64,000 nt of DNA. Source: an uncultured Methanosarcinales archaeon (GTDB lineage: Archaea > Nanobdellota > Nanobdellia > Woesearchaeales > CAYVYK01). Shown here in pieces: positions 1 through 32,343 of this stretch (positions are counted from its first letter, which is position 1; each line of letters starts with the position of its first letter). The notes below the pieces were generated by a model that ran no database searches, was not told where the DNA came from, and worked only from the letters and a program-made list of their open reading frames with translations. The stretch spans positions 40,166 through 104,165 of the forward strand of contig CAYVYK010000007.1 of NCBI GenBank assembly GCA_964455675.1, given 5' to 3'. Both the position numbers and the translations under genes were made by a program.

Positions 1-91
1 AATGACCTTCTTCATGGCATACACAAGTTCCTGGTCGCCATAAATATCTTTCGCCACAACACATAAAAACATCGAGTCATTCAGTTGGTGT

Positions 92-820
92 ATGCGCACT
101 GTGGCAATCATTCCTGCATATAATGAAGAACGACGGATAGAGGAAGTGATCAAGGGAGCCCGCAAACACGTTGACAAGGTTGTCGTCGTCGATGATGGAA
201 GCAGTGATGGAACTGCACGCCTCGCAGAGAAACTCTGCATGGTCATCCAACATCCACGCAATAAGGGCAAGGGCGTGGCCATACGGACAGGCATATCTTA
301 CGCATGCCGCAAGTTTGACGCGATCATACTGATCGATGCTGATGGAGAACACGATCCTTCGGATATCCCGGCACTCCTTCGCGCACTTTCGAATCATGAT
401 CTGGTTGTTGGACGACGAGGGCAGTACCGCAGCCCGGCGCGAGCACTCCTCAATAGGTTCGGAGACCTCTGGTTTGGCATCCTCCTCCCCAAACACATCG
501 ATGTCCATTCAGGATTTCGAGCTATGCGCTCTGGCCTAGCTCGAACCATGCACCTCTCAAGCAGAGGATTTGAAGTTGAGGTAGACATGCTCCTTGAAGC
601 ACGATACCATGACGCACGCATGGCCAGCGTCCCCATTAGTACCAAGCGCGCAAACAAAAGTGGAGTGAAGTTTAAGGATTATGTGAAGATCAACAATTTC
701 TTCGACCGGTGGATACTTCAAAAGGGAAAATCTTTAAATATCAACCCGGCAAAAAAAACAATGCTCATCATCGGAGCAGGTCTCGGATTGTTTTTTGGTT
801 CAATCCTTGAGAGAGTATAA
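92..820 (+). CDS. family 2 glycosyltransferase (GT-A fold), C-terminal TM helix
   Basis: ATG ORF of 242 aa. Motifs IIPAYNEE, VVVDDGSSDGT and DADGEHD are typical of GT2 enzymes. Hydrophobic C-terminus. Confidence 0.8.
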   Translation: MRTVAIIPAYNEERRIEEVIKGARKHVDKVVVVDDGSSDGTARLAEKLCMVIQHPRNKGKGVAIRTGISYACRKFDAIILIDADGEHDPSDIPALLRALSNHDLVVGRRGQYRSPARALLNRFGDLWFGILLPKHIDVHSGFRAMRSGLARTMHLSSRGFEVEVDMLLEARYHDARMASVPISTKRANKSGVKFKDYVKINNFFDRWILQKGKSLNINPAKKTMLIIGAGLGLFFGSILERV

Positions 821-1313
821 GAGAGTATACTTATGGGAATCATCACGGATCACGCACTCGCGTTCACACATCTCGCATATGTATTTCTATTAATCATACT
901 CCTCATCTTTGCGCGCAACACGTATCGCACACTAAGGCAGATCAATGAGAGGTTATAACCTTGGGCACAACAGCACTTGCCATCTATCTTACACAAATTC
1001 CGATTGGTATCGGCATATTCATCGGCGCATATTATTTGCATCGATGCAGAAAGGAACTTGTGGAGATACTGCAGAAGCTTGGGAGATTAAAATAGTCCAG
1101 AATACTACCAAGCTATTGCTCACTTAAGTTGCTCAAGAACTGCCGCTTTCGAGGGAAATTTCTTCTGACAGGAACTGCAGACATAACGCTTCTTGTATTG
1201 ATGGTCCTTAATCACAGTTCCCACTACCTTTTTCAGGAATGTCTCAGCAATCTTTTCCCGGCAGATATCGCACTTCATATAAGAATGGAGTAAGTAGGCG
1301 TTTATATCCTTTG

Positions 1314-2111
1314 CTACTTGCCTAGCATTGCAGGGTAATAGCGCTTGACGAAATCAACGCACGCAATGCCTGTGCAATTCATCCTCGTGATCATTCCCTC
1401 GAGAATCTTCCAGGCATTCTCACCAGTGTTTCTCCGAGAGAGATTATCAACAACAAAACCCGCATGATCGGGAACATTATTTCCCAAGAATTCATGAGGA
1501 TGCATGTTGAACACGGCGAGACGACCAACCTTGCCAAATGGGTACATTGGATGGAAGGCACGCATGAACGAAAGGCCGAAGGGGATCTTGAACATTGAGT
1601 AACTGGTGATCGGGATTTCCAAGAAGTAGTTACCTTGTTCCTTAAGCGACGCGACAGAGCAGAGGTATGGCCGGTTTGGAATGTCCCGGTTATTATATCT
1701 GCCAGGGAAGTATGCTCGCGCAAGGCTGGCGTCATAGACATAGCCAGCCTTCTTCAAACCTATCACATCAGCAGGATCAATCATGTTGTAGGGTGCTCGA
1801 AAACCATGCACAGGAATCCTTAGTTCCTCAATAGCCTCCTTTGATGCTACAAGCTCCTTCATGACTTCAGCTTTCGTGAGCCTTGTCATATCACGATGCG
1901 AAAAACTATGCGAGGCCACCTCGTGCTTCCTTGATATCTCAAGCAGTTCATCCTCAAAAGAGTGTACAATGCTTGCCTGAACAAAAAACGTGCAGCGAAT
2001 GTGATGATTGTCAAGGAAATCCAGAATTTTCGGGAGCACCTCTTCAAGAGCTTGCGTATCCTGGGTTTCCCAATCAGGTTCCAAATCGCAGGTAAAAATG
2101 ATCGTTCGCAT
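1314..2111 (-). CDS. polysaccharide deacetylase family protein (CE4-like)
   Basis: 265 aa ORF. Motifs TCDLEPDW and HSFSHRD resemble the NodB/polysaccharide-deacetylase metal site. A TATA-like element lies about 20 nt upstream on the minus strand. Confidence 0.7.
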   Translation of the reverse strand: MRTIIFTCDLEPDWETQDTQALEEVLPKILDFLDNHHIRCTFFVQASIVHSFEDELLEISRKHEVASHSFSHRDMTRLTKAEVMKELVASKEAIEELRIPVHGFRAPYNMIDPADVIGLKKAGYVYDASLARAYFPGRYNNRDIPNRPYLCSVASLKEQGNYFLEIPITSYSMFKIPFGLSFMRAFHPMYPFGKVGRLAVFNMHPHEFLGNNVPDHAGFVVDNLSRRNTGENAWKILEGMITRMNCTGIACVDFVKRYYPAMLGK

Positions 2112-2235
2112 GACACTGCAAAGGAGCGTGTTCTATAAATACTTACTGCTAGAATTTTTCTATCACCCGGTGGTTGCTTTTGGTTGTGATCCTGATGACA
2201 ATTTTTTTAAAGGCGAGGCAAGTCTTCATATATAT

Positions 2236-2310
2236 ACGCCCCTGTAGCATACACAGCAACACACTGCTGGTCGCTACATGTGCTCCGCTTCGCTACGCCC
2301 CTGTAGCATA
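2236..2310 (+). repeat. 16-17 nt direct repeat acgcccctgtagcata (2236-2251 and 2295-2310) flanking an imperfect hairpin (2244-2277)
   Basis: Exact repeat read in the sequence; the second copy forms the 5' end of the tRNA-like element. A TATA-like atatatata sits at 2227-2235. Confidence 0.6.
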
Positions 2311-2369
2311 GTAGCTATTGCGTCTGCCTCGTAAGCAGAAGGTCGAGGGTGCAAGTCTCTCCAGGGGCT
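2297..2369 (+). tRNA. tRNA-Thr(CGU)-like element with degenerate D and T loops (possible pseudo-tRNA or att-site tRNA)
   Basis: 7-bp acceptor GCCCCTG/CAGGGGC, TA at positions 8-9, anticodon arm TCTGC-CTCGTAA-GCAGA (anticodon CGT), variable AGGTC, T arm GAGGG-TGCAAGT-CTCTC. D loop lacks GG and T loop lacks TTC. 73 nt. Confidence 0.35.
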
Positions 2370-2617
2370 TATTTCTTTTTTATCCGCCGCAGGACATATC
2401 TACCAACAAAGAGCACAAGAATACCGAGGCATGAGATCCACAAACCAAAAATGATGGAATCAAGGTAGAGATACCGGCAAATATACGGTGCCGACTTTGC
2501 AGCAAACGGCCCACTGATACCACAGATGACCACTTTCGTACGCAGAAAGTACCATACCGAGGATGCGATCAGCAACACAAAAAAAAGAATCAGCGCAGTC
2601 AATGTGAATCGTTTCAT
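2369..2617 (-). CDS. small two-TM membrane protein, hypothetical
   Basis: 82 aa ATG ORF with two hydrophobic helices. Minus-strand TATA-like ttttatat about 25 nt upstream. Confidence 0.35.
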   Translation of the reverse strand: MKRFTLTALILFFVLLIASSVWYFLRTKVVICGISGPFAAKSAPYICRYLYLDSIIFGLWISCLGILVLFVGRYVLRRIKKK

Positions 2618-3401
2618 GCATTCAAGATTATCACTAGAGGATATAAAATTTGTGCGGTGACTGCGCCTACCTATAACCGCTAATTCACGCTAAAACCACC
2701 CCCGGCGTACACCGAAGAGGATCATAGCACAGCATCTTCCCCTTGTTCTCGCCATCGATGATCTAGCGCGGTCTGAACCGGCAAGTTCACCAAACGCATA
2801 CTCCCACCTCCCATGTAAAAAGTAAGCACACGATTATAATACCCTTATCAACATGGAATCTGTACATCAGATGCATAAGGGTTTTAACGGGTACAACGGG
2901 CAGGCGGAGTACATTACCAATGTGTTCTCTGTGCTTTACGTCGGTGATTTAAGGATAGTATCCGCGCTGATGTGTATCATTTATAAATAAATAAAGAGTT
3001 ATATCTACTAGCAAGTAGTGTATTAATACAAACAAAGGCATCACTAGTGGTGTTCATAATCACCACATTTGATTAAATCGTTTTGAAGACTATCAATACC
3101 ATACTACATAACAACCAGCCACACCACGAATCTTTACGCGTGCTCAACCATTGAGCCAAAAACCTTTGGCGGGTCATGCGCAAGGATCAACCCTTCGCCA
3201 TCATCGCACGGCATCTGTGGACTATCACATGACGATGTGCGGGATGAGAAACACTATGGAGGAGCCGGAATACGGGAACAAACGCGTATTTCGATGGTGA
3301 AACGGACACCATAAGACGTAGCGAAAGCTCTTTCTTGGAAATTTCCCTCGTTGGGAACAAATATTCTCACTATTCGGCGCGGCCGAGAAAGGTAGGATTC
3401 C

Positions 3402-4517
3402 ATGGCACGAAAAGCAGTAGCAGACAGAAGCGATGTACGTGAAGTCGTGTTCTGCTTCGACACGACTGGATCAATGTATCCTTGCATCGCACAGGTGAAG
3501 CGCAAGGTTGAGAGGATGGTTCGCCACCTGATGCAGGAAGTTCCCGGCATCCGAATCGGGTGCATGTGGCACGGCGACTACATCGACATGCCGAACATGT
3601 TCGGTAAGCTCGAGCTCACGACGGACATCGAGAAGATCTGCGCGTTCATCCGGAACGCACCCCAGACGGACGGAGGCGACACGGCCGAATGCTACGAGCG
3701 GATGCTCCATGAGGGCCTCGGTTTTCGGTGGACACCCGGCGCTCGACGAGTGTTCGTCCTGATCGGCGACGATGTCCCACACGAGCCCTCGTATCCGCAG
3801 AACAAGCAACGCCTCAACTGGCGCGATGAGCTCGATCGGTACACGGAAGCAGGCACGCAGGTGTATGGCGTGCAGTGCCTCGGACGGCATCACGCGGATC
3901 CGTTCTACATGGAAATCGCACGGCGCACGGGTGGCGTTCGCATCCAGCTCAGTCAGTTCCACCTCGTGGAAGACCTGATCTTCGCGATCTGCATGAAGCA
4001 GATTGGCGACGATCGCGTGGCGATATTCGAGCAGGACCTCATCCGCGAGGGCAGAATGAGCCGCGCCGCCGAAACGATCTTCGACGGGCTGCTCGGTCGC
4101 ACCGCACGGAAGTCGCGCTGGGGAGAGGCAGGCCTTGAAGCGGTCGACCCTGCGCGGTTCCAAGTGCTCAGTGTTGACAGCGACCAGGCCATCCGCGAAT
4201 TCGTCCAGAACAACGGTCTGCGCTTCAAGACGGGACGCGGATTCTACGAGTGGACGAAGCGGGAGACGGTGCAGGAGAAGAAGGAGGTCGTTCTCGTCGA
4301 CCGCAACACGGGAGACATGTTCACGGGCGGGCACGCGCGCGAGCTGATCGGCCTACCCTACGGCAACCGCGCGGACATCAACCCGAACGATCTTCCGGCC
4401 GAGCTGCGCAATCGGTTCAAGTTCTTCATCCAGAGCACGAGCTACAACCGCAAGCTCAAAGCTGGCACGCAGTTCCTGTACGAGGTCGAGGACTGGGATC
4501 GCGCTGACGCAGCGTAA
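3402..4517 (+). CDS. cytoplasmic von Willebrand factor A (vWA, MIDAS) domain protein with about 170-aa C-terminal domain of unknown function
   Basis: 371 aa. MIDAS-like DTTGS (VVFCFDTTGSM), later TDGGDT and GDDVPH. Very GC-rich (about 65-70%). SD gaaaggtagg upstream. No signal peptide. Confidence 0.75.
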   Translation: MARKAVADRSDVREVVFCFDTTGSMYPCIAQVKRKVERMVRHLMQEVPGIRIGCMWHGDYIDMPNMFGKLELTTDIEKICAFIRNAPQTDGGDTAECYERMLHEGLGFRWTPGARRVFVLIGDDVPHEPSYPQNKQRLNWRDELDRYTEAGTQVYGVQCLGRHHADPFYMEIARRTGGVRIQLSQFHLVEDLIFAICMKQIGDDRVAIFEQDLIREGRMSRAAETIFDGLLGRTARKSRWGEAGLEAVDPARFQVLSVDSDQAIREFVQNNGLRFKTGRGFYEWTKRETVQEKKEVVLVDRNTGDMFTGGHARELIGLPYGNRADINPNDLPAELRNRFKFFIQSTSYNRKLKAGTQFLYEVEDWDRADAA

Positions 4518-4539
4518 ATCTGCGCGGCAATCATCCTTC

Positions 4540-4573
4540 CGAGGAGGCGCAAAGCCATTGCTTTGCGCCTCCT
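4540..4573 (+). promoter_or_regulatory. perfect 14-bp stem hairpin (gaggaggcgcaaag-ccattg-ctttgcgcctcctc) between vWA gene and downstream gene
   Basis: Inverted repeat read directly. No trailing T-run. Abuts the ATG at 4575. Confidence 0.5.
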
Positions 4574-4574
4574 C

Positions 4575-5093
4575 ATGGAGGAATTCATGACAAGAATTAA
4601 GACGTACGTGTTCAACGCTGCCGTCGCAACATGGACAGGCATTCCCCTCGGCGTGCTGCTCGGCATCGCACACATGCACATGAAACTTGTTGACGACGAC
4701 GAGTGGCTGTCGCTAGCTACGTTTGCGACGATTGCGGTTGCGATTCTCTGCACCGTCGTTCTCCACGAGGCAGTGCACAGTATCGTTGCCCGGTCATACG
4801 GACTTCGCGCGAAGTACGGCGTCAAGTACATCTTCGCATACGTCACATTCACCGAGAAGATGCCACGCAATACGTTCCTTGTGATCGCACTTGCGCCACT
4901 CATCATCCTAAGCCCAGGGCTATTCCTCCTCTACTATCTCGACGTGCTCCGCGTGTTCAGCTGGTTCTGCTTCGTCACGAACACGTTCGGAGCGATCGGT
5001 GATATCTGGATGGCAGCGAACGCACTGCGGCACCCACGAAAATGCATAATACAAGACACGGGGGTTGGCTTTGAAATCTGGGAAGGAGAATAA
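4575..5093 (+). CDS. polytopic membrane protein with HExxH motif (putative zincin-like metallopeptidase, DUF3267-like)
   Basis: Longest ORF starts at TTG 4563. In-frame ATGs at 4575 and 4587, with GGAGG before 4587. Motif LHEAVHSIV lies between hydrophobic helices. About 170 aa. Confidence 0.5.
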   Translation: MEEFMTRIKTYVFNAAVATWTGIPLGVLLGIAHMHMKLVDDDEWLSLATFATIAVAILCTVVLHEAVHSIVARSYGLRAKYGVKYIFAYVTFTEKMPRNTFLVIALAPLIILSPGLFLLYYLDVLRVFSWFCFVTNTFGAIGDIWMAANALRHPRKCIIQDTGVGFEIWEGE

Positions 5094-5098
5094 CTGCC

Positions 5099-6166
5099 AT
5101 GCCCAAGATGGAGATCACATCACTCCTTGACGCGTGCATCAGGATGGACGCGTCAGACATCCACATCTCACCCGGGAAAGCACCGTGCCTTCGTCTGCAC
5201 GGCGAGATCACACCCCTCGAAACGATACCTGTCACAGAGGAGATCGCCGTCCAGCTCATGAAGGCGATTACGCCGGAGCGACATCAACAAGAGCTCATGG
5301 AAGAGGGGACAACTGAGTTCGGTTTCGACTATACTGAGGCAGCGCGCAGATTTCGCTGCTCGATTTACAAGACACGTCAGGGAACGTGCATGGTCCTGCG
5401 CCTCGTGCCAAAGGACATCCTCACATGCCAGGAACTTGGGCTTCCGCCCAAGGTTTCTGAGATCGTACTCAGCAAGGCGCGAGGCATCTTCTTTGTCACC
5501 GGACCCACGGGCTCGGGCAAGTCCACGACGCTTGCGGCGCTCATCCACCTAATCAATTCCACGCAAGCGTGCAAGATTGTGACGTTCGAGGATCCGATCG
5601 AATACGTGCACACACACCGCAGGGCGATCATCGAGCAGCGAGAAGTGGGAACACACCTAGTCGGGTACATCGACGGCATCCATAGGGTGCTGCGACAGGA
5701 TCCGAACGTCATCCTTCTCGGAGAACTGCGCAACCTCGATACGATGGAGGCTGCACTGCGCGCTGCCGAGACAGGCCACCTCGTGTTCGCGACGCTGCAT
5801 ACGAGGGGTTGTTCGAGCGCGATCAACAGAGTCATCGATGCGTTCCCAGAGATCCAGCAGAACCAAATCAAGACGCAACTCGCCATGTCGCTCCTTGGCG
5901 TGCTCAGCCAGATCCTCGTCCCCCGAAAAGGGCCAGGACGCGTCGCCGCGTTCGAATTCATGTACACGGACAACGGCATCCGAAGCATGATCATGCAGGA
6001 CAAGCCCGTGCAGATCGACAGCCACATCCGCACGCACACAGGTAAGGGCATGATGCTCATGGATGATCATCTCTTCCGGATGGTTGAGGCGAAAGTCATC
6101 ACGAGGGAAACCGCGATCGAATACGCGCGGAACACTGCCGAAATGGAGGAACGGCTCAGTCGGTAG
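5099..6166 (+). CDS. pilT: PilT/PilU-family type IV pilus retraction-type ATPase
   Basis: 355 aa. Walker A GPTGSGKST, Walker B ILLGEL, His box FATLHT, and C-terminal GIRSMIMQDKPVQIDS resembling the PilT AIRNLIRE motif. SD ggaaggaga 9 nt upstream. GC about 58%. Confidence 0.85.
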   Translation: MPKMEITSLLDACIRMDASDIHISPGKAPCLRLHGEITPLETIPVTEEIAVQLMKAITPERHQQELMEEGTTEFGFDYTEAARRFRCSIYKTRQGTCMVLRLVPKDILTCQELGLPPKVSEIVLSKARGIFFVTGPTGSGKSTTLAALIHLINSTQACKIVTFEDPIEYVHTHRRAIIEQREVGTHLVGYIDGIHRVLRQDPNVILLGELRNLDTMEAALRAAETGHLVFATLHTRGCSSAINRVIDAFPEIQQNQIKTQLAMSLLGVLSQILVPRKGPGRVAAFEFMYTDNGIRSMIMQDKPVQIDSHIRTHTGKGMMLMDDHLFRMVEAKVITRETAIEYARNTAEMEERLSR

Positions 6167-6201
6167 CGCGTGTGTGCACGTCTGGACAGCACGTTCTCCA
6201 G

Positions 6202-6232
6202 GGTACGACGACTGTTGTCGTACCCTTTTTTT
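6202..6232 (+). terminator. intrinsic-type terminator hairpin (ggtacgacgactgttgtcgtacc) followed by a T7 run
   Basis: Read directly, 36 nt after the pilT stop. Confidence 0.6.
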
Positions 6233-6344
6233 ATCTTATATCATTACCATATAGTAAATATATTTGAGAAAATACCAATGACTTAAGGTGACGCATAAAG
6301 ATAAAAAAAAATCAGAAAATCAAGAGTGAAGCAGTAGAAAAGGA

Positions 6345-6410
6345 TTACTTCTTCTTCGTGGGCTTCTTCTTCATGGAAGCACAGGAACCGCCACAGCAGC
6401 AACCAGCCAT
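6345..6410 (-). CDS. 21-aa Cys-rich, Lys-tailed micro-ORF (MAGCCCGGSCASMKKKPTKKK)
   Basis: Strong SD GGAGGTGA 5 nt upstream of the ATG. Located 68 nt downstream of the last ABC permease gene. Followed on the minus strand by a T9 run (plus-strand 6305-6313) that would end the operon. Confidence 0.35.
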   Translation of the reverse strand: MAGCCCGGSCASMKKKPTKKK

Positions 6411-6478
6411 TCAATCACCTCCATAAACTGATGACACGCTTCTCTTTTTAACCTCTTCGTTTAACAGAATCCCTAGCG

Positions 6479-7690
6479 TTATTCCCAGCGCAGTGCATCG
6501 ACGGGATTGAGCTTTGCCGCCTGCCACGCTGGCCAGGAGCCAGACGCCGCACCCATGATAAACGCGAACGCTAGTGTTCCTGCGACCAGCCACCAGGGGA
6601 AGTGAGGAACAATGATTGTGTAGCCGGCAACCGCCGCACCCTTGGACAATCCGACAGAGATTGAATACCCGAGAAGCACGCCAAGAATTCCTCCCACAAG
6701 TCCCAAGAATCCGGATTCGATCAGGAATATCCCAAAGATATCACCGTTCTTGGCGCCAATTGCTTTCATGACACCAATTTCCTTTGTGCGTTCCAGAACA
6801 GCAGTGTACATGGTGTTCAGAATTCCGATTGCACCAACAATCAAGGAGATACATGCGATCATGAAAAGTATTCCCTGCATGACGAGCAGCACAACAGTAA
6901 ACTGCTGGATAAGTTCCTCAAGTGTCTGGACAAAAAATGTCTCCTTTCCCTTCTCCTCACCTCGATGACGACGGAGCTTTTCAGCAACGACGTCCGCCAT
7001 CTCAGAGGGGTTCTGATCAGGAGCAACGCGGGCATAGAGCATATAATACGTTTTTGATTCTCCAAAAATCTCCTCATACCCCTCCTCTGAAATGTACACC
7101 TGCGCGTCGTCATTTGGATTCCCGATCTGCTTGTATATACCAACAACATCCGCGCGATTGTCATTGATAAGCACGTGGTCACCAACTTTGACGGGCCGAG
7201 TAAATATCTTATTTGGCTGACCATAATTATATCCAAGAATCACCTTCATCTTGTCGCCCTGCCGCAGCTCGCGACCCTCGATGATCTCGAGCTGGAATGA
7301 CTCTCTCACGAAGAAACGCTCTTGGCCCGTAGGCATTGCAAGCACAAAGACATACTTGAACTGATCATCCTTTTCTATCTTAACAGAATTGAAGCGAAAA
7401 CCAACTGCCTCAGAAATCCCATTGATCCGACGCACAAAGCTCACATCACTATCCGAAAGATTGAAAGGCAGCGATGTTCCAGGAGCCGCAAATCCACGCC
7501 CTTGAATCATGAGCTTATCTCCCCCCATCTTCTCGAATTGCTTGTTTAATTCCGTGCTGAGTCCTTGTCCCAGACTCACGAGCGCAACAACGGCAGCAAC
7601 TCCAATAGTTATCCCAAGGACAGTAAGCCAAGAGCGCAGCCTCCGATGTAGCAAATTTCCAATTGCGTACGTAAAATAGTCAGTGATCAT
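6479..7690 (-). CDS. ABC transporter permease, FtsX/MacB-like (4 TM plus large extracytoplasmic domain)
   Basis: 403 aa. N-terminal MITDYFTYAIGNLLHRRLRSWLTVLGITIGVAAV TM1, large extracellular domain, C-terminal FtsX TM bundle. ATGA overlap with the upstream paralog. Confidence 0.8.
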   Translation of the reverse strand: MITDYFTYAIGNLLHRRLRSWLTVLGITIGVAAVVALVSLGQGLSTELNKQFEKMGGDKLMIQGRGFAAPGTSLPFNLSDSDVSFVRRINGISEAVGFRFNSVKIEKDDQFKYVFVLAMPTGQERFFVRESFQLEIIEGRELRQGDKMKVILGYNYGQPNKIFTRPVKVGDHVLINDNRADVVGIYKQIGNPNDDAQVYISEEGYEEIFGESKTYYMLYARVAPDQNPSEMADVVAEKLRRHRGEEKGKETFFVQTLEELIQQFTVVLLVMQGILFMIACISLIVGAIGILNTMYTAVLERTKEIGVMKAIGAKNGDIFGIFLIESGFLGLVGGILGVLLGYSISVGLSKGAAVAGYTIIVPHFPWWLVAGTLAFAFIMGAASGSWPAWQAAKLNPVDALRWE

Positions 7691-8910
7691 TTGATTGCCC
7701 TCAACGCGTCAACGGGTTTTAGTTTGGACGCCTGATATGCGGGAAGAGCACCGGAAGCGAGTCCAACTAAGAAGGAGAATAGAAGAGCACCTGGAACAAG
7801 GTACCAAGCGATATTAGCGCGCACCAAATCCGAGGCAAGGTATGCAGCACCAGCGAAGGCCAAACCTTTTGCGAGTGAAACACCAATCCCAACACCGATG
7901 AGGCCTCCAAGCATGCCAAAAAAACCAGACTCGATTGCGAATAGCAGAAATATGGTTCCATTCGTTGCACCGAGAGACTTCATGATGCCAATCTCCTTCG
8001 TACGCTCAAGAACAGAGGTGTACATCGTATTCATGATACCAATGCCACCAACCATGAGCGAGATGAATGCGATGAATACAAAGAAAACTTGAACCGCGAG
8101 AAGAACAGTATTCAGCTGGCGTAGAGCGGCCTCAGGTGTCTGCACCGTAAAATCTTCCTCACCTTCCTTCACGTCCCGCTCCTTTCGCAGCACGCGCTCC
8201 ACTTCCGCTTCGACAGAGTTGAGATTGTCAACATTCGCGACTTCTACAACGATGGAATCATACCGGTCAGGAATGCCATATAGATCTCTCATGTCCTCCT
8301 CGTTCATACTGACAATATCGTCAACGATAAATGATCCTTTACGTTCCAGAATCCCAATAACCTGAAATTCTCTGTCATTAACGAGGATTCGATCGCCTGT
8401 CGATACAGCGCGTCCGTACTCATTGTCTGCCTTAGCGAAGTTCGCGCCAACAATCACCTTGCTTCTATCGCCATCACGAAGAAATCTTCCCTGCATGATC
8501 TCAAGATTATCGGAACCTTGTATCAACCTACGTTCCTCACCGTCAGGCAGGCTGGCCACATACGTGTAGGACAGTTTGTTGTTAAATTCTGTCTTTGATA
8601 AGGTAATTATCCTTCCAGCAACGCCGGAGACACCTCTCACTGATGAAATCTTATTCACATAACTTTTATCCAAAGGAACGACCGCACCTGCTCCGGGCGG
8701 ACCTTGACCGGTACCTGACGCTTGCACAGTAAGTTTATCCGCATCGAGAAGAGCAAACTGCGAGGTAATAGCATTCCTCATTCCATCCCCAAGCGCGATG
8801 AGACTTACAACAGCTGCTATACCTATGAATATCCCGATAAGAGTAAACCAGGAGCGAACCTGACGCTTCCGGATACTTGCCCAAGCATACTGGAAATAGT
8901 CCGTGATCAT
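7687..8910 (-). CDS. ABC transporter permease, FtsX/MacB-like (paralog)
   Basis: 407 aa, same architecture and about 40% identical to the downstream permease. 4-nt overlaps on both sides. Confidence 0.8.
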   Translation of the reverse strand: MITDYFQYAWASIRKRQVRSWFTLIGIFIGIAAVVSLIALGDGMRNAITSQFALLDADKLTVQASGTGQGPPGAGAVVPLDKSYVNKISSVRGVSGVAGRIITLSKTEFNNKLSYTYVASLPDGEERRLIQGSDNLEIMQGRFLRDGDRSKVIVGANFAKADNEYGRAVSTGDRILVNDREFQVIGILERKGSFIVDDIVSMNEEDMRDLYGIPDRYDSIVVEVANVDNLNSVEAEVERVLRKERDVKEGEEDFTVQTPEAALRQLNTVLLAVQVFFVFIAFISLMVGGIGIMNTMYTSVLERTKEIGIMKSLGATNGTIFLLFAIESGFFGMLGGLIGVGIGVSLAKGLAFAGAAYLASDLVRANIAWYLVPGALLFSFLVGLASGALPAYQASKLKPVDALRAIK

Positions 8911-10184
8911 CGTGACTTTTCGCTACGCTTTTTGCGAACTGCGCGGAAGATGAGGAAGCCGATCACGACAATCACCACGACAATAATGACGCCAATCCAG
9001 GGATTGGTCTTACCATTATTGTATTGCTTTGCCTTCAACGCAGAGATTATAGGGACTTTCACCGAGGAAGTCATTGTATACTGCTTGTTCGTGGAGTCAC
9101 TGTACGTCATCTGTACCGGAATCGAAAGTTCCTCAGTAGCCGAAGGATGGACAAAGATCTCCAGATCGGCAGTCTGATAGTCATCAGAGTCAATCTCACC
9201 GATATAATTTTCTGCTGGCGAGAGTATATCATATTGCACAGTATTCCCGATTGTAGTGTACAAGAATTTGACACCCGTCGGTCCCTTGTTGATGTAGCGC
9301 AAACTCAGTTTCGCTTTCTGACCGGGCGTAATCATTCCGTCAGGCTCAGCAGTAACGATGAGATCGGGAGTTCCTCCTACAATGAGCGATGTGAGTACCT
9401 CTTTTGTATAGTTGCTCTCCAGGGAATCAATATACTCTATAGAGATTGGTACACGATAAATCTTAGCGATAGCGTCACTTTCTGCTATCAGATGAAATTG
9501 TACTTGCATCGTCTGCCCAGGATCAAGGAACTGTATTGTTTTTTCGTTAATAGAATCAACTGGCGCGAAAGGAGTCGTGTCTGAGAGATCCAAGCGAACA
9601 CGTACGTCCCTCACATAGGTACCTGCTTGGTTATTCACCTCAAGCGTGAGGAAGGTCTCGCCCCCGGGTTGCACCCGAGAGGGATCGGACTTTACGCCAC
9701 TGATCTCAACATTCGCTCTGCTTACCTGAACAACAACATAGAACGGCGTCAGATCAGCCCATGTATTGCCACCATCCTTAGAATAGCGCAAATCCAAACG
9801 GTGGTTTCCCTGAGGAGCGTTCTTATCGACTTGCAAACGATAACGTATGATGTACGCATCCCGCCCTGTATTCAAATTGTCCACAGTTCCAAGGCGTACC
9901 TCTGCAGGTGTTGAGGGATCAATAGTAAAAGGATACTCAGGATCAAGAGCGACAACGAGATTGCTGATTTCACCACTCAAGACCTGCACCTTGAAACGCA
10001 CATCGACAAAGGCACCAGGACGCACAGGATCAGGATCCTGATTTACAAAGTATGTCGGCAGATCCCCAGTGTTATAATTGGAATCATGACGAATGTCAAC
10101 ATACCCTGACGCTTCGGCAAGCACAACCGGCGCTAGTATGAGCATAACACTGATTATTCCAATGGATGACAGTACATTTTTCAT
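8907..10184 (-). CDS. secreted surface protein with cleavable signal peptide and C-terminal TM anchor (ABC-transporter-associated)
   Basis: 425 aa. N-terminal signal ...VVLA/EASG. C-terminal hydrophobic helix IGVIIVVVIVVIGFLIF followed by RAVRKKRSEKSR. Embedded in the ABC operon. Confidence 0.5.
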   Translation of the reverse strand: MKNVLSSIGIISVMLILAPVVLAEASGYVDIRHDSNYNTGDLPTYFVNQDPDPVRPGAFVDVRFKVQVLSGEISNLVVALDPEYPFTIDPSTPAEVRLGTVDNLNTGRDAYIIRYRLQVDKNAPQGNHRLDLRYSKDGGNTWADLTPFYVVVQVSRANVEISGVKSDPSRVQPGGETFLTLEVNNQAGTYVRDVRVRLDLSDTTPFAPVDSINEKTIQFLDPGQTMQVQFHLIAESDAIAKIYRVPISIEYIDSLESNYTKEVLTSLIVGGTPDLIVTAEPDGMITPGQKAKLSLRYINKGPTGVKFLYTTIGNTVQYDILSPAENYIGEIDSDDYQTADLEIFVHPSATEELSIPVQMTYSDSTNKQYTMTSSVKVPIISALKAKQYNNGKTNPWIGVIIVVVIVVIGFLIFRAVRKKRSEKSR

Positions 10185-10200
10185 AGATATCCCTCCAGGT

Positions 10201-10899
10201 TCATGATTTCACCATGACTGATCTCTCAATCTGACCATCCTTCAAATATTCGATACGATGCGCAAAGTGGGCAACGTTATCATCATGCGTCACGAGAATA
10301 ATTGTTTTTCCCTCTTCCAAATGCAGTTTCTTAAGGAAATCCATCACGATCTTCCCTGTTTTTGAATCAAGATTTCCTGTTGGCTCGTCCGCGAGGATCA
10401 CTTCAGGATCGTTCGAAAGCGCCCGTGCGATCGCCACACGCTGCTGCTGACCACCTGACAACTCCGTAGGACGGTGATGCATCCGATCCTGAAGTTCCAC
10501 AAGCTTGAGAAGCGCGGTCGCCTTTTTAATCCGCTCATCCCTTGGCACACCCTGAAATGTCATGGGCAGCATCACATTCTCAAGAGCTGAAAGCGTAGGA
10601 ATGAGATTAAAACTCTGGAAGATAAAACCGATCATCCTCCCCCTAATCTGAGCAAGGTCTGACTCATGCAGCTGGGAGATGTCCTTGCCATCCAAAAAGA
10701 TCCTACCCTTTGTTGGAACATCAAGACAGCCAACCATATTCACTGCGGTGGACTTGCCACTTCCTGAAGGGCCCATGATGCTGATGAAGTCACCCCGCGT
10801 TACTTCAAGGTTCAAGCCTTGCAGGGCAGCTACCTCAACAGCGCCCATTGTATAAATCTTCCACACATTCTCAAGCTTGATGACTACATCTTTCTTCAT
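10201..10899 (-). CDS. ABC transporter ATP-binding protein (MacB/LolD-type)
   Basis: Walker A GPSGSGKST, signature LSGGQQQRVAIARAL, Walker B ILADEPTGNLD, H-loop VTHD. Likely start at MKKDVVIKLENVWKIY (ATG 10899) rather than the track start at 10935. Confidence 0.85.
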   Translation of the reverse strand: MKKDVVIKLENVWKIYTMGAVEVAALQGLNLEVTRGDFISIMGPSGSGKSTAVNMVGCLDVPTKGRIFLDGKDISQLHESDLAQIRGRMIGFIFQSFNLIPTLSALENVMLPMTFQGVPRDERIKKATALLKLVELQDRMHHRPTELSGGQQQRVAIARALSNDPEVILADEPTGNLDSKTGKIVMDFLKKLHLEEGKTIILVTHDDNVAHFAHRIEYLKDGQIERSVMVKS

Positions 10900-11062
10900 A
10901 GCAGCAACCACTCTCACGTATTCTATATGCATCACAATTCCTTACTTATAAAGATTTGGTCATAGATTCAAGATATGTATGAGAAAATACGTTCTCGGTA
11001 CAAGAAGAGTCGATTCTTCTCACGAGTTTTTCCGACGGCTCGGGGAAGCTTTGACACAAGAT

Positions 11063-27814: not shown

Positions 27815-30058
27815 TCAGAATCCAGAAATGTTACCCGTCTGGCTTAAAATTGTTCCGGCAATCAGATTGAACAGTATCATGATCACCCCGGTCGTAATCA
27901 CATAAAAGACCGTACAACGGATCAAGTTTTTTCCTAGCAAATAGCGCTCGCTGATGCGGTCAGGACCGTTATCAATCCCATTCATCAGGATAGTGAGAAT
28001 GTACACGATCTGCACAACATAAATTCCGACAACAATCTGAAAGAAAAATGTGGGAATACCATCACCACCACCAATAAGAGAAGCACTCGCAAACCCCCCA
28101 AAACCTGCGGACGAACCAGAATCGCCGCCAATCTGGCTTATCATCTTTGCCTGATTTGACAAGAGCCCAAGGATGTTTGTGATCATAGACGTGATACCAA
28201 CTACAACTCCAGAGATGATTGGCGTGAGGAAATTAATTTGCGACTGCATGGAGCTCACAACATCCTCAAGAATGTCCTTTAAACGCTCATTCACAAGGTG
28301 GATCTCCTTGATGTAGCGAGAGACATTCATCACAGCCTGCGCAGCAATCGCTGGACCTTTCTTCACACCCTGGACGAGCACCTCCATGGAGCTCTCAATT
28401 AGGTTTGAAGGGAAATACGCAAGCGCACCATTCCTTGAACTGAAGATCGCCTCATGGACACTAAGACCCAGGCGGCGGATATTATTGTCCACAATCGCGA
28501 AGAATCTTCCCGATTCCGTGCCCTGCATGACATCTGATACTCGCCCAAAGGCAATCTCCGCAGGTATGCGGTCACCAAGACGGTTACCGAGCTGGAATAG
28601 GGCGGAGGCAAACTCCTGCTCAAGTTTCTTCGTTTTCTCACGAATATCGATCACGTTCTCCGAACGCATCTTGTAGTACACACCTAAACCCAAGCCAAAC
28701 GCCAGTGTCACGCATAAGCTTAAAAGAGCAGCACCGAGGCCAAACGGACCAACCTTATCGTCACGAGTGGTCTCCTCAAGACCTGCACGGTATTCCAGCA
28801 GGCAGAACTGCTGCTTGCACGCACTGATCTTCTCAAACGCCTGAGCGTTTGCCGCAGAAAATGTGATACCAAAATCAAAATCAGGAGCAACAAGATGGAT
28901 CAGCAAAGGAGAGAGACCAAGCAAGAGCAATATGACGAATACAGCCCAACCAACAGAGGCAGGTGACATCGTCCTCTTCTTCCCAAAAAAGTTGAACTTG
29001 TACTCGCGCTCTTTTACGACAGCAGAGCTCTCCGAGATATCCGTGCTGCCATACCCTGTTGGCCTTGTCGCAAGAATATTCTTTCCCATGTAGAACACAA
29101 CGAGTGGAAGCAGAACGTTATAGAGCATGGCAATATGATACCAGCGAATGCCACCCATAAAACTCACCATGAGCGGAAGCATGACAAGACCAAGGATTGG
29201 CAGTACGACTCCAAGCATGTTCAAGGTGGAAATCGGGGACTTGAGATTATGCGCAAAATGCAGCATCTTCTCGTATGTTTCCTCAAGAATTATCTCAAGA
29301 GACTTGTCAAGCAACGCAAGCCTTCGCTCCTCAGCAGACTCATAGAGCGATGAAATAATGAGATGGAATGACTCTAAAAACTCTGGATTGTCCTTGCGCC
29401 ACGTCTCAAGATAGGTATCAATCGCGTCCTTTACCGTATCATACTTTTGCGCCTCAACGTCCCAGAGAATCTTACGAAAGTCAAGACTTAAGGGCGGAGC
29501 CATGTGTTGAGAGGCAAACTCAATCGCGAGCTCAAGGTTTGAGGTGTGCCGCATATACGTGACAAGATAAAAAATGCAAACAACCATCTGATTGGAAGCC
29601 TTCATCCGCCAACCATTCGCCATATACTCAGGAAGCTTTTGCAGAGGGTAGAGTAGGATTACCGCGAAAAGAAGCGCAAACATGCTAAAGAAGAGCGTCG
29701 TCTTATCTAGGATAAGGGCCGGAATCAAGTATCCGAGAAGCCCTCCGAAGAACGCGATCATGATCGGCGCAAGATACGCAAAACTTATCGCGCCAGAGGG
29801 AGTGATGTCGAGATGACAAATATTGATATTCTCCTGCAATCGCTCCGCCTGCTTTGGATCTGGCTTAATCCCGGCGATCTTCTCGCTCCATGCGCAAAGC
29901 TTCTCATAGATGGAGAGATTCTTTGGCATGAACTCCCGCTTGAAAATCTGATACTCAGAACTGTACACCGGCCTAACCGTCTCCTTCTCACCCGAAAGGT
30001 CCTTCTTTAGCTGAGACTTATACTTTCGAGCAATCTCCTCATACGATGCGTTTGCCAT
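27815..30058 (-). CDS. FlaJ/TadC/PilC-like polytopic membrane platform protein (enlarged)
   Basis: 747 aa. Alternating cytoplasmic helical domains and TM clusters. Immediately downstream of (2-nt gap) the secretion ATPase. Confidence 0.55.
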   Translation of the reverse strand: MANASYEEIARKYKSQLKKDLSGEKETVRPVYSSEYQIFKREFMPKNLSIYEKLCAWSEKIAGIKPDPKQAERLQENINICHLDITPSGAISFAYLAPIMIAFFGGLLGYLIPALILDKTTLFFSMFALLFAVILLYPLQKLPEYMANGWRMKASNQMVVCIFYLVTYMRHTSNLELAIEFASQHMAPPLSLDFRKILWDVEAQKYDTVKDAIDTYLETWRKDNPEFLESFHLIISSLYESAEERRLALLDKSLEIILEETYEKMLHFAHNLKSPISTLNMLGVVLPILGLVMLPLMVSFMGGIRWYHIAMLYNVLLPLVVFYMGKNILATRPTGYGSTDISESSAVVKEREYKFNFFGKKRTMSPASVGWAVFVILLLLGLSPLLIHLVAPDFDFGITFSAANAQAFEKISACKQQFCLLEYRAGLEETTRDDKVGPFGLGAALLSLCVTLAFGLGLGVYYKMRSENVIDIREKTKKLEQEFASALFQLGNRLGDRIPAEIAFGRVSDVMQGTESGRFFAIVDNNIRRLGLSVHEAIFSSRNGALAYFPSNLIESSMEVLVQGVKKGPAIAAQAVMNVSRYIKEIHLVNERLKDILEDVVSSMQSQINFLTPIISGVVVGITSMITNILGLLSNQAKMISQIGGDSGSSAGFGGFASASLIGGGDGIPTFFFQIVVGIYVVQIVYILTILMNGIDNGPDRISERYLLGKNLIRCTVFYVITTGVIMILFNLIAGTILSQTGNISGF

Positions 30059-30060
30059 AT

Positions 30061-32343
30061 CTATTGTGACTCAGTCATCCGAATCTTCTTAACCTGGCGC
30101 GAAAACCAAGAGTCCCACTCTTCATAGATGCGACGGGAGTCAAGAGCGCCAACCTCCTCCCTCACTTGGTCCGAGATGCGGTGGAACTGATCATTTGCCT
30201 GCACGATAAACGCGGCCTCCATTAACTCAGGCATGTTCGTTGAATCTGCAACTTCCACTATCCGCTGCTTCATGTTCGCGCGAAGCATGATATTATCCCA
30301 CACCGCATCCCACTTCCCTGCCCATTCCCGAACGTTACCCGCGATCGACTTGAGGATGTCACTTTCGCCCTGGATGAAATCCTTCGTAGGCTCAAGCTTG
30401 TCAATCAGGGGATTGTACTTCATAAGGTCACCAAAGCCACCCTCACGAAGAGGATCATCCACCCAGAACTTTCGCACCTCGGTAACCTGCGTGACCCGAC
30501 GGAAACGATGCATGCCATCGGCACTCTTGATCGGATTTGCGACAATGATAATATCAGTCGCCTTGAAACTCGTGCGGGGAACCTTAAGATCATTCACAAC
30601 ACGATCGAATACACCATAGGGCGAATCACCGTGGATCGTACCCGCAACAACGTTCGCAAGCGCGCCAACACGCATCGCTTCATAGAGAGCAGTAGCCTCT
30701 TTGCTGCGAACCTCGCCAACGATAAGGCAAGAATCACCAAGGCGCAAGGTCGTGCGAATCCCGGTCTCGGCGTCAACCTCAGACGTTGCAGCACCGATAG
30801 CGGAACTCACCTTCATGGGCTGAATGTTATAGCCGAGCGCGCGCATCGAGCCAACAGGAAGCTCAAGCGTGTCCTCAATCGTGATGATACGATACTTGCG
30901 CATAATCTCAATCAAGAGCGCGCTCAATAAAGAGCTCTTACCCGCAGAGCGAGTACCTGCAACAAGCATCGTCCTTGAGCCGTCAATAAGGAAACTCATC
31001 AGCCCTGCGGAAAGTGGGGAGATCATTCCCTGCTTGATGAACAAAGGAAGCGTCCAAGGACGGTCACGATGACGCCTGAAAGCATACGCTAGACCTGAGG
31101 GGTTGAGCGGGGGAGAGATGACTGCGATACGCGCCTTTGATCCAGGAAGCTCAAGTTCAGTGTCAAGAATGGGATTTGCCTCATCCAAGGGGCGGCCAGA
31201 GATCAAACGCAGCTTTGTCGCCCATGAATCGGACTCGTTTGGCGTCGGATAAATGTTGGTGCGACAATCCTCAAAATCCTGATGAACGATAAATATGGGA
31301 ATCTGGCCCATGGGAGAATTAATCGTAATATCCTGAACCTTTTCGTCCTGTAGTAGTACCTCAACAAGCCCAAAACCAATCGTGTACCGTACAAGAATCT
31401 GCGTCAACTCATCCCAATCCTTTTCCTTTAGATGCACGCCCTTGAAGTCAGATAGCTCGCCAAGAAGGTCACGACCAACATTTGAGAACACCTGACGCAT
31501 ACGTTCAGGATCGATAAATTCGGCTCGCTTTGGCTTATGATCGGCAAGGATGTTTCGTGCCATATCAAGAAGCTCATACTTATCTTCACTTAAGCGAAAC
31601 TCTGGAGGCATCATGTGATAGAGGTACTGTACCGTCTCTGGAATACTGAAGATGGTCACTTCAGTCGAACCAACCTCATAGCTCTCAAGCTCCTCACCGT
31701 CAGATGGATAGTTCGCCATGAGCTTTGTGTACATGAAGTCAGGCTTAATCGTCGGCGCAAACAATTTCCGATAGATCTCGCGATCCCCGATGTGATAGTC
31801 AGAGAGATACGGCTTAGCCATAATGACAAGCTTTGTCTTGTCCAGCATGAGAAGAATGTAATTCAGCAGTTTCACCCAACGCTCCAAATGCTCCTTTCGC
31901 GATTTTTGCTCCTCGACCTCATAGTTGATCTTCACATGACGGTAGATCCGCTTGAGCTCGACGTACGCAGAAATCGGATCTCCCTTCAACCTACTGAACA
32001 CGATGTGCTGCAGCTGAGTGTATGTGGAGCTATCCTTTGATAGCCCCCGCATCTGGAATGAGAGAAGCCGCTGCCTCACAATATTTGCGTAGATACGCGC
32101 GATCTCAGCGACCATCTGCGTCTGATCATAATCATACTCAAAGTCTCGCTTCTGAGCAAACACGATTTTTGTCGCGGCACCAGCCTCCGCGAGAATCTCC
32201 ACCGTCTTTGACATACATAAGGAGTCGTCCTCAAGCGATGGAGTCTTCGTGTACGCCTCAAGGTCGATGCGAAGAATGATCTCCTGCCCTTCGCGGACCA
32301 CTTCATACTCAAAAGGCTTCTTACTTGACGTGGTCCCTGCCAT
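30061..32343 (-). CDS. type II/IV secretion-system ATPase (FlaI/TadA/VirB11/GspE family), enlarged N-terminal region
   Basis: 760 aa. Walker A LVAGTRSAGKSSLLSAL at about aa 450, Asp box, Walker B IIVGEVR, His-box-like region. Confidence 0.85.
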   Translation of the reverse strand: MAGTTSSKKPFEYEVVREGQEIILRIDLEAYTKTPSLEDDSLCMSKTVEILAEAGAATKIVFAQKRDFEYDYDQTQMVAEIARIYANIVRQRLLSFQMRGLSKDSSTYTQLQHIVFSRLKGDPISAYVELKRIYRHVKINYEVEEQKSRKEHLERWVKLLNYILLMLDKTKLVIMAKPYLSDYHIGDREIYRKLFAPTIKPDFMYTKLMANYPSDGEELESYEVGSTEVTIFSIPETVQYLYHMMPPEFRLSEDKYELLDMARNILADHKPKRAEFIDPERMRQVFSNVGRDLLGELSDFKGVHLKEKDWDELTQILVRYTIGFGLVEVLLQDEKVQDITINSPMGQIPIFIVHQDFEDCRTNIYPTPNESDSWATKLRLISGRPLDEANPILDTELELPGSKARIAVISPPLNPSGLAYAFRRHRDRPWTLPLFIKQGMISPLSAGLMSFLIDGSRTMLVAGTRSAGKSSLLSALLIEIMRKYRIITIEDTLELPVGSMRALGYNIQPMKVSSAIGAATSEVDAETGIRTTLRLGDSCLIVGEVRSKEATALYEAMRVGALANVVAGTIHGDSPYGVFDRVVNDLKVPRTSFKATDIIIVANPIKSADGMHRFRRVTQVTEVRKFWVDDPLREGGFGDLMKYNPLIDKLEPTKDFIQGESDILKSIAGNVREWAGKWDAVWDNIMLRANMKQRIVEVADSTNMPELMEAAFIVQANDQFHRISDQVREEVGALDSRRIYEEWDSWFSRQVKKIRMTESQ

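Follow-up and report, generated by a model that had tools for sequence, protein, structure and literature searches.

A GC-rich three-gene island with a PilT-family ATPase in an archaeal genome: probable inter-domain transfer

How did a gene for a PilT-family ATPase, a motor reported to be absent from archaea or confined to bacteria (PMC4858521, PMC11178785), come to lie among archaeal genes, and do the two genes beside it form a system with it? These questions are raised by contig CAYVYK010000007.1 (assembly GCA_964455675.1) of an uncultured archaeon, of which a stretch of 64,000 nucleotides (nt), hereafter the window, was analyzed; coordinates are counted from its first letter. A segment of ~3.1 kb on the forward strand (~3100-6232), here called the island, is inserted between host genes and contains three intact co-oriented genes, encoding a von Willebrand factor A (vWA) domain protein (gene 1), a DUF3267 membrane protease (gene 2) and the PilT-family ATPase (gene 3). 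An earlier reading made from the letters alone, the sequence-only reading, had described a GC-rich foreign cassette with a vWA protein, a membrane HExxH protein and a bacterial-type PilT ATPase, co-oriented at 3402-6166 and closed by a hairpin and seven T, in a window that is otherwise archaeal. All of these points were borne out, but the further suggestion that the three proteins might work as one coherent system was not. The locus is best explained as a probable transfer between domains, in which the vWA gene would be a passenger and the protease and ATPase would be a coupled pair.

Composition and junctions of the island

The island stands out in guanine-plus-cytosine (GC) content. In 300-nt windows between 3450 and 6150, GC ranges from 53 to 64%, and a fit with two change-points places these at 3480 and 6225, with 58.5% GC inside and 46.9% outside (log likelihood ratio 57). 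The gene-bearing part (3402-6166) has a GC content of 58.2%, compared with 48.2 ± 1.1% (maximum 50.6%) in every other 2765-nt segment of the 64 kb, and outside the island no 1-kb stretch exceeds 52.7%. At third codon positions, GC (GC3) is 0.78, 0.68 and 0.73 in genes 1, 2 and 3, compared with 0.531 ± 0.031 (maximum 0.62) in 46 other genes (z = 4.6-7.9). The dinucleotide relative-abundance distance, a measure independent of GC, is 0.118 from island to host and 0.048 ± 0.015 for host windows (z = 4.6); in the island, CpG is over-represented, CC/GG and TA under-represented. By GC content, GC3 and dinucleotide signature alike, the three-gene cassette is an outlier and is compositionally foreign. 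Two of the figures that had been proposed need correction. A GC content of 70% was seen in none of the 100- or 300-nt windows inspected, the highest reaching 64%. The claimed flanks of 33-45% GC apply to the AT-rich intergenic stretches bordering the island (27-38% GC at 2951-3150 and 6201-6350) and not to the window as a whole, which is at about 48%.

The edges of the island match a gene start and a terminator, not repeats. On the left, GC in 100-nt windows rises from 32-38% (2951-3150) to 47-53% (3101-3450); the leader directly upstream of gene 1 on the same strand (3100-3401) is non-coding, of intermediate GC (~47-53%), and holds no open reading frame (ORF) of note. On the right, the change-point at 6225 coincides with a terminator-like hairpin (6200-6232). 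The exact island proteins are present on a 109.6-kb NCBI contig, and both junctions are reproduced in Logan contigs. One of these, from run SRR12133404 (L001), equals window positions 1740-5105 at 99.97% and covers the left junction, from a host deacetylase gene and a tRNA through the non-coding stretch to the vWA and DUF3267 genes. The other, from run SRR12133403 (L091), equals positions 7884-5744 at 100% and covers the right junction, reading from a MacB permease gene of the host across the intergenic region into the final 423 nt of the PilT gene. With both transitions to host DNA recovered in assemblies made independently from two sequencing runs, the island is neither a chimera nor an assembly artefact.

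The three genes and their families

Gene 3 (5099-6166, forward strand), which starts 5 nt after the gene 2 stop codon, encodes a divergent PilT-family hexameric ATPase of 355 residues. It matches the family model TIGR01420 (pilT_fam) with 380.8 bits (cut-off 319.1), its residues 6-348 aligning with positions 2-343 of the 343 in the model, and it also matches T2SSE. In the PDB, it matches PilT of Aquifex, Geobacter, Thermus and Pseudomonas best (257-280 bits), well ahead of PilU (184-191 bits), DotB (130 bits) and PilB, PilF and GspE (~90-112 bits). With PilT/PilU proteins such as those of Aquifex aeolicus (2ewv), Geobacter metallireducens (6ojx) and Pseudomonas aeruginosa (3jvu), it shares a full-length match and the ATPase motifs; aligned with Aquifex PilT are Walker A (GPTGSGKST), the Asp box (FEDPIEY), Walker B (ILLGELRN) and the His box (GHLVFATLHT). 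The PilT signature AIRNLIRE is invariant and is needed for retraction in vivo. Its consensus in the 119 nearest relatives of gene 3 is A-I-x-N-L-I-R-E-N-K, and Aquifex PilT reads AIRNLIRENK, whereas gene 3 reads GIRSMIMQDK and keeps three of the eight AIRNLIRE residues. A lack of PilT-specific motifs, which the sequence-only reading had named as counting against its view, is thus seen in part: AIRNLIRE is replaced by GIRSMIMQ, although the family model is passed and the ATPase motifs are intact. Divergence is not limited to the signature: at 175 near-invariant columns (at least 95% conserved among the same 119 relatives), gene 3 departs at 56, compared with 21 in the next most divergent relative and typically 5-7.

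The best relatives of gene 3 are 48-52% identical to it, and those that are named come from Phycisphaerae or other Planctomycetota. The closest ones sit in ordinary pilB-pilT-pilB-pilC-pilin operons. No type IVa pilus genes (pilB, pilC, pilins) were found in the island or its immediate flanks, and the pilus-type locus of the host, ~22 kb from gene 3, is of the archaeal FlaI type only. Gene 3 thus differs from the rest of the PilT/PilU family in lying in an archaeal genome without pilB, pilC or pilin neighbors, in its altered AIRNLIRE and in its apparent translational coupling to a DUF3267 protease.

Gene 2 (4587-5093, forward strand) encodes a protein of 168 residues, or 176 if translation were to begin at TTG 4563; the start at ATG 4587 agrees with a database gene call of 168 residues. 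It belongs to DUF3267 (PF11667; 73.2 bits, cut-off 27.1), a family of membrane-embedded HExxH zinc proteases of the site-2 protease (S2P) clan. Residues H60, E61, H64, P104, N132, G135, D139 and W141, all invariant or nearly so in the family, are kept, and H60, E61, H64, P104 and D139 are also invariant or nearly so in alignments with the 12 closest relatives. Four hydrophobic segments (residues 11-28, 43-59, 98-115 and 114-130 onward) were delineated by a simple hydropathy scan, not by a topology predictor; four transmembrane (TM) helices are reported for 88% of the family (PMC13252029). The only characterized member of DUF3267 is TmcP, described in a 2026 preprint as an S2P-clan intramembrane leader peptidase of TMcin, a ribosomally made peptide that is modified after translation (RiPP) (PMC13252029). 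Gene 2 shares with TmcP-type proteins the HExxH motif after the second TM helix, a conserved Pro, a distal Asp, four hydrophobic segments and a length of ~170 residues. The context is different: the island lacks the RiPP setting of TmcP, having neither a precursor nor a TmcE-like escort, a disulfide enzyme or a transporter, and a PilT-family ATPase adjoins instead. A full HMMER search of 1.84 billion representatives gave 849 relatives of gene 2, the best 42% identical, so that the protein is at most 42% identical to any other member of its family; a word-indexed search gave one weak relative. In metagenomic loci found by a scan with a five-sequence alignment, the neighbors of DUF3267 relatives look bacterial (HrpB helicase, beta-lactamase-family proteins, BamD-like TPR lipoproteins).

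Gene 1 (3402-4517, forward strand) encodes a vWA-domain protein of 371 residues with a DxTxS variant of the MIDAS metal site and a C-terminal domain of ~130 residues and unknown fold, for which no solved structural relative was found. The vWA call holds: the protein scores 27.7 bits against Pfam VWA_4 (PF25106), just above the cut-off of 27, and also matches VWA_2. Its structure was predicted with a mean local confidence (pLDDT) of 89 and a global score (pTM) of 0.88. The metal-site motif reads D20-T21-T22-G23-S24, and T89 and D123/D124 are invariant; with ligands that are all hydroxyl or carboxyl groups, this variant is compatible with metal binding. No TM segment was detected, and the protein is predicted to be cytoplasmic. 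Among the scored candidates, 946 relatives were found, the best 50-54% identical over 95% of the length. The best relatives with a source name come from cyanobacteria, Myxococcota, Planctomycetota and Thioploca, and a C-terminal WGR domain is present in some homologues. With one genome scanned per GTDB species, 315 vWA loci were obtained, the best 80 of which are all bacterial. A further 334 loci were found in IMG/VR, the best 45-50% identical and on contigs of 180-470 kb, some of them giant-virus metagenome-assembled genomes (MAGs), and among GenBank viruses the protein occurs in Virus Rctr197k (48.7%), Rhizobium phage RHph_I1_18 (41.5%) and a 595-kb phage. Gene 1 shares all 99 invariant columns of a 27-sequence alignment, including FDTTGSMYPC, GGD and IGDD, and departs at 16 of 130 near-invariant columns (family median 1), an unusual divergence, though smaller than that of gene 3.

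Gene 1 has the two-domain layout of the stand-alone VWA_4 family, but no other copy was seen in an archaeal context or beside a PilT or DUF3267 gene. Elsewhere, the vWA gene lies alone among unrelated genes in the annotated examples. Its sole recurrent neighbor is ligA, encoding NAD-dependent DNA ligase, which follows it immediately downstream in 36 loci of cyanobacteria belonging to several orders (e.g. L082, 10001-13379), and in Rhizobium phage RHph_I1_18 it lies amid nucleotide-metabolism genes and an RNA ligase gene. The ligA adjacency, the WGR fusions and these phage neighbors are hints that the role of the family is tied to nucleic acids or ligases. No MoxR-type ATPase adjoins the vWA gene, either here or in the homologous loci with annotated neighbors. 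The locus resembles vWA-MoxR pairs in that genes for a MIDAS-type vWA protein and a ring ATPase lie close together. However, the ATPase here is a PilT/secretion-type (FtsK-HerA-like) hexamer and not a MoxR AAA+ protein, and this vWA family was seen beside no ATPase elsewhere, which leaves a likeness in working mode unsupported.

Expression signals, origin and insertion site

Genes 1 and 2 are separated by 69 nt and genes 2 and 3 by 5 nt. A terminator scan detected the hairpin at 6200-6232 (forward strand; 12 pairs, -18.3 kcal/mol) followed by seven T, and because the co-oriented genes end at this single terminator-like hairpin, they are probably one transcription unit. A second hairpin lies between genes 1 and 2 (4541-4574, forward strand), formed by a perfect 15-bp inverted repeat (GAGGAGGCGCAAAGC / GCTTTGCGCCTCCTC; -32.8 kcal/mol). 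Its arms carry the Shine-Dalgarno (SD)-like motif GAGGAGG and its complement CCTCCTC, no T-run follows it, and the alternative TTG start of gene 2 falls inside it; it could be a processing site, a stabilizer or an attenuator. Gene 2 has the SD-like motif GGAGG 5 nt before its ATG, and gene 3 has AAGGAGA 8 nt before ATG 5099, within the end of gene 2. This placement, together with the 5-nt gap, suggests coupled expression of the protease and the ATPase. The bacterial-style SD sites that had been proposed are thus found as SD-like motifs before genes 2 and 3, but the motif ahead of gene 1 is weak. Moreover, archaea use such motifs too, so they do not discriminate bacterial from archaeal expression. 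A bacterial promoter was also sought; no sigma-70-like site was found upstream of gene 1, and the regional count of such sites equals the expectation from shuffling.

As judged by sequence comparison, each of the three genes has bacterial or viral nearest relatives, at 42-54% identity, and no archaeal relative was found, in keeping with the bacterial affinity that had been expected. Such low identities do not allow a donor to be named. A viral origin was considered for genes 2 and 3 and rejected. The IMG/VR scan gave no match to the PilT protein and, for DUF3267, one 22-residue match at a contig end. PilT matches in a phage database are at most 44% identical and are mostly on unannotated 'Bacteriophage sp.' contigs or in assemblies with ordinary bacterial pilT/gspE annotations.

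The rest of the window is archaeal. It encodes GatE (equivalog match, 506 bits, cut-off 456) and a Cdc48-type double AAA protein with a CDC48_N domain, as well as a FlaI/TadA-like ATPase of 760 residues (30061-32343, reverse strand) with a T2SSE domain, which scores 122 bits against the archaellum FlaI model, below its cut-off. Adjoining the latter is a 747-residue protein (27815-30058, reverse strand) that lacks a Pfam match and has ~8-9 predicted TM segments; it is presumably a platform protein like FlaJ or TadC. The region 27815-32343 on the reverse strand thus looks like an archaeal type IV filament core. The genes for GatE, Cdc48, the FlaI/TadA-like ATPase and its neighbor are all of host composition.

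On the left of the island lie a tRNA-Thr(CGT) gene (2297-2369, 61.6 bits), 1 kb upstream, and an ORF of 82 codons (2369-2617, reverse strand) with two TM segments and host-like GC, which separates the tRNA gene from the island. The N-terminus of the ORF product, MKRFTLTALIL, loosely recalls a bacterial pilin N-terminus (G/FTLIE), without the Gly at -1 and the Glu at +5, and the stop codon of the ORF touches the 3' end of the tRNA-Thr gene. A sequence of 17 nt, TACGCCCCTGTAGCATA, is repeated exactly and in direct orientation at 2235-2251 and 2294-2310, which places a second copy of the first 14 nt of tRNA-Thr(CGT) 59 nt upstream of that gene, with the island on the other side; the repeat may be the scar of an old integration or excision at tRNA-Thr. 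Between the 82-codon ORF and gene 1 there is a real non-coding stretch of ~780 nt (2620-3400). A structured RNA was sought there and rejected, with no Rfam match and a weak folding signal (z ~ -1.9 on either strand).

On the right, the island is flanked by an operon for a MacB-type ABC exporter on the reverse strand, made up of an ATPase gene (10201-10935), a gene for a 425-residue protein with an N-terminal signal or anchor and a C-terminal TM segment (8907-10184) and two MacB/FtsX permease genes (6479-8910). Immediately downstream of this operon and in the same orientation, in DNA of host composition just outside the island, a 21-codon ORF (6345-6410, reverse strand) encodes MAGCCCGGSCASMKKKPTKKK, with a strong SD (GGAGGTGA) just upstream of its ATG; the product may be a small Cys-rich exported or metal-binding peptide.

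The sequence-only reading had likened the locus to a genomic island beside a tRNA. The tRNA gene and the non-coding stretch are real, and classical tRNA-associated islands likewise combine anomalous composition with a tRNA gene, here within 1 kb of the left side. In contrast to such islands, no direct repeat of the tRNA flanks this one, and a host-composition ORF lies between the two. Neither the ORFs listed for 1-10000 nor the ten flanking proteins compared with Pfam (to 15.6 kb) included an integrase or transposase. No direct repeats of the attachment-site (att) type pair the two island edges across 2200-6700. Integration at the tRNA was rejected, the sole tRNA-related repeat being the 17-nt duplication of its 5' end on the far side from the island, and the picture of a genomic island at a tRNA remains a weak one. 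Six window proteins that were looked up are each alone in their 90%-identity cluster, the host genome was absent among the GTDB species representatives returned in the vWA scan, and a comparison with an empty site gave nothing, the adjacent MacB permease having no relatives in metagenome contigs by an 8-mer scan. Because no close host relatives were found, the insertion can be neither dated nor delimited by synteny.

Competing explanations and meaning

The reading preferred here, with a probability of roughly 0.6 for the whole, is a genuine inter-domain transfer with a passenger vWA gene and a coupled protease-ATPase pair. About 3.1 kb of bacterial-type DNA (~3100-6232) would have been inserted, probably fairly recently, in an intergenic region of an archaeon, between tRNA-Thr with the small membrane-protein gene on one side and the MacB-type exporter operon on the other. 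The vWA gene would be a passenger from a very mobile stand-alone family, whereas the DUF3267 protease and the PilT-family ATPase are probably made together. The ATPase would then work at the membrane beside the four-TM protease and not as a classical pilus-retraction motor, because AIRNLIRE and one third of the near-invariant positions are lost and no bacterial pilus genes came along. The data establish the foreign composition, the reality of the junctions, the family assignments, the intactness of the catalytic motifs and the lack of any recurrence of the trio; co-transcription and any benefit to the host are what we infer, and a partnership of protease and ATPase is weakly suggested by the spacing of their genes.

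Several observations weigh against this reading. A check by sliding-window GC and codon usage had been proposed, and although GC is not uniform and GC3 is an outlier, the synonymous codons of the island are not unlikely under host usage (z = +0.5 to +1.0); foreignness is flagged by GC3 and the dinucleotide signature only, not by codon likelihood. Identities of 42-54% together with un-ameliorated GC imply that the true donor is unsampled, and 'bacterial' is deduced from the nearest relatives. Moreover, the choice between C and G at third positions in the island is closer to the host than to the sampled Phycisphaerae/Myxococcota loci: CTC/(CTC+CTG) is 0.71 in the island, 0.69 in the host and 0.42-0.54 in those loci, GCG/(GCG+GCC) is 0.73, 0.67 and 0.41-0.52, and ACG/(ACG+ACC) is 0.88, 0.58 and 0.44-0.57, the bacterial ratios coming from crude ORF sets that possibly include shadow ORFs. 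This likeness could point to an intermediate donor of higher GC, either an archaeon or an archaeal virus. As for expression, the strong hairpin at 4541-4574 could split genes 1 and 2 into different transcripts, and no promoter was identified for the three-gene unit. The protease-ATPase partnership is drawn from how the genes are spaced in one genome, and no second case supports it.

A serious, though unlikely, alternative is that the three genes were transferred together by accident, bring no benefit and are drifting, so that their excess substitutions are the first signs of decay. It would fit the 56 changed columns and lost signature of PilT, the 16 changed columns of the vWA protein, the arrival without partner pilus genes, the failure of the trio to recur in any of the loci surveyed and the status of the cassette as a singleton in ~5.8 billion clustered proteins. 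However, all three genes are full length relative to their homologues, without frameshift or stop codon, and every catalytic or metal-binding residue examined is kept, in the MIDAS-type site of gene 1, the HExxH motif and Asp of gene 2 and the Walker motifs, Asp box and His box of gene 3. Decay under the 48% GC of the host would also lower GC3, yet it still stands at 0.68-0.78. As GC3 shows no shift toward the host value, the divergence probably in large part predates the transfer and arose in an unsampled donor.

A bolder proposal, which must be called doubtful, is that the archaeon has domesticated a bacterial PilT-type motor, either as a membrane machine docked on the protease or as the retraction motor of an archaeal filament. 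In the first version, the hexameric ATPase would dock on the co-translated four-TM S2P-like protease and feed it membrane-helix substrates such as pilin-like proteins, which would amount to an FtsH-like division of labor built from unrelated parts.

That all three genes form a dedicated conflict, defense or signaling module is improbable. Here, the MIDAS of the vWA protein would sense or recruit a target, the PilT-like hexamer would replace MoxR and the membrane zincin would be the effector. The genes are indeed co-oriented and tightly spaced with one terminator, no MoxR partner is present, and members of the vWA family are common in jumbo phages and giant-virus MAGs, a frequent pattern among conflict-related genes. 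In comparisons by tblastn, however, neither PilT nor DUF3267 relatives were found near the vWA gene in any of 80 bacterial loci (±10 kb) or 80 IMG/VR viral loci (±8 kb), nor were PilT or vWA relatives found near DUF3267 in any of 25 metagenomic loci, so that any two of the three genes are paired in 0 of 185 related loci. The vWA gene stands alone everywhere examined, with ligA and not an ATPase or protease as its conserved neighbor, the closest PilT relatives belong to pilus operons, and between the vWA gene and the other two stands the hairpin of -32.8 kcal/mol. In PADLOC-DB v2, the vWA and DUF3267 proteins have no match and PilT has only weak generic P-loop matches (E 3e-6 or worse); an identity as a defense system was rejected, as no system-specific match was obtained. 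The three genes are not a conserved system, and there is no evidence for a novel one.

The second version of the domesticated motor, in which the acquired PilT would serve as the retraction motor of the archaeal type IV filament of the host, encoded 22-26 kb downstream, is very improbable. Archaeal pili retract by a motor that has not been identified (PMC11178785), the window encodes the FlaI/TadA-like ATPase and its multi-TM neighbor, and the ATPase core of PilT is intact. Nevertheless, AIRNLIRE is degenerate, gene 3 is unlinked to the pilus locus, archaeal platform proteins and bacterial PilC are no more than distant relatives, and gene 3 is a singleton and not a trait of the lineage. Least credible is a bacterial fragment misjoined into an archaeal contig during assembly or binning. 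In its favor, the contig comes from a metagenome assembly, the composition of the island is sharply different and the host has no close relatives for a synteny check; against it, both junctions recur in two assemblies from two runs, genes of host composition lie on either side of an internal island, and the edges coincide with a gene start and a terminator in place of repeats.

The preferred reading, a transfer that brought a passenger vWA gene and a coupled pair, involves known families (a PilT-family ATPase, a DUF3267 protease and a VWA_4-type vWA protein); the host and the juxtaposition are what is unusual. The vWA family is large, highly conserved and uncharacterized, and is common to cyanobacteria, myxobacteria, planctomycetes, jumbo phages and giant-virus MAGs, and gene 2 is a DUF3267 intramembrane protease outside any RiPP context. 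If true, either version of the domesticated motor would be the first functional PilT-family ATPase in Archaea, and interest would rise if other archaea carry the same pair or if gene 3 acts on archaeal filaments or with the protease. An intact PilT-family gene in an archaeal genome is a notable exception to a PilT described as bacteria-only (PMC4858521, PMC11178785). As a single divergent, horizontally acquired copy without pilus context, it documents gene flow from bacteria to archaea and leaves the general picture unchanged.

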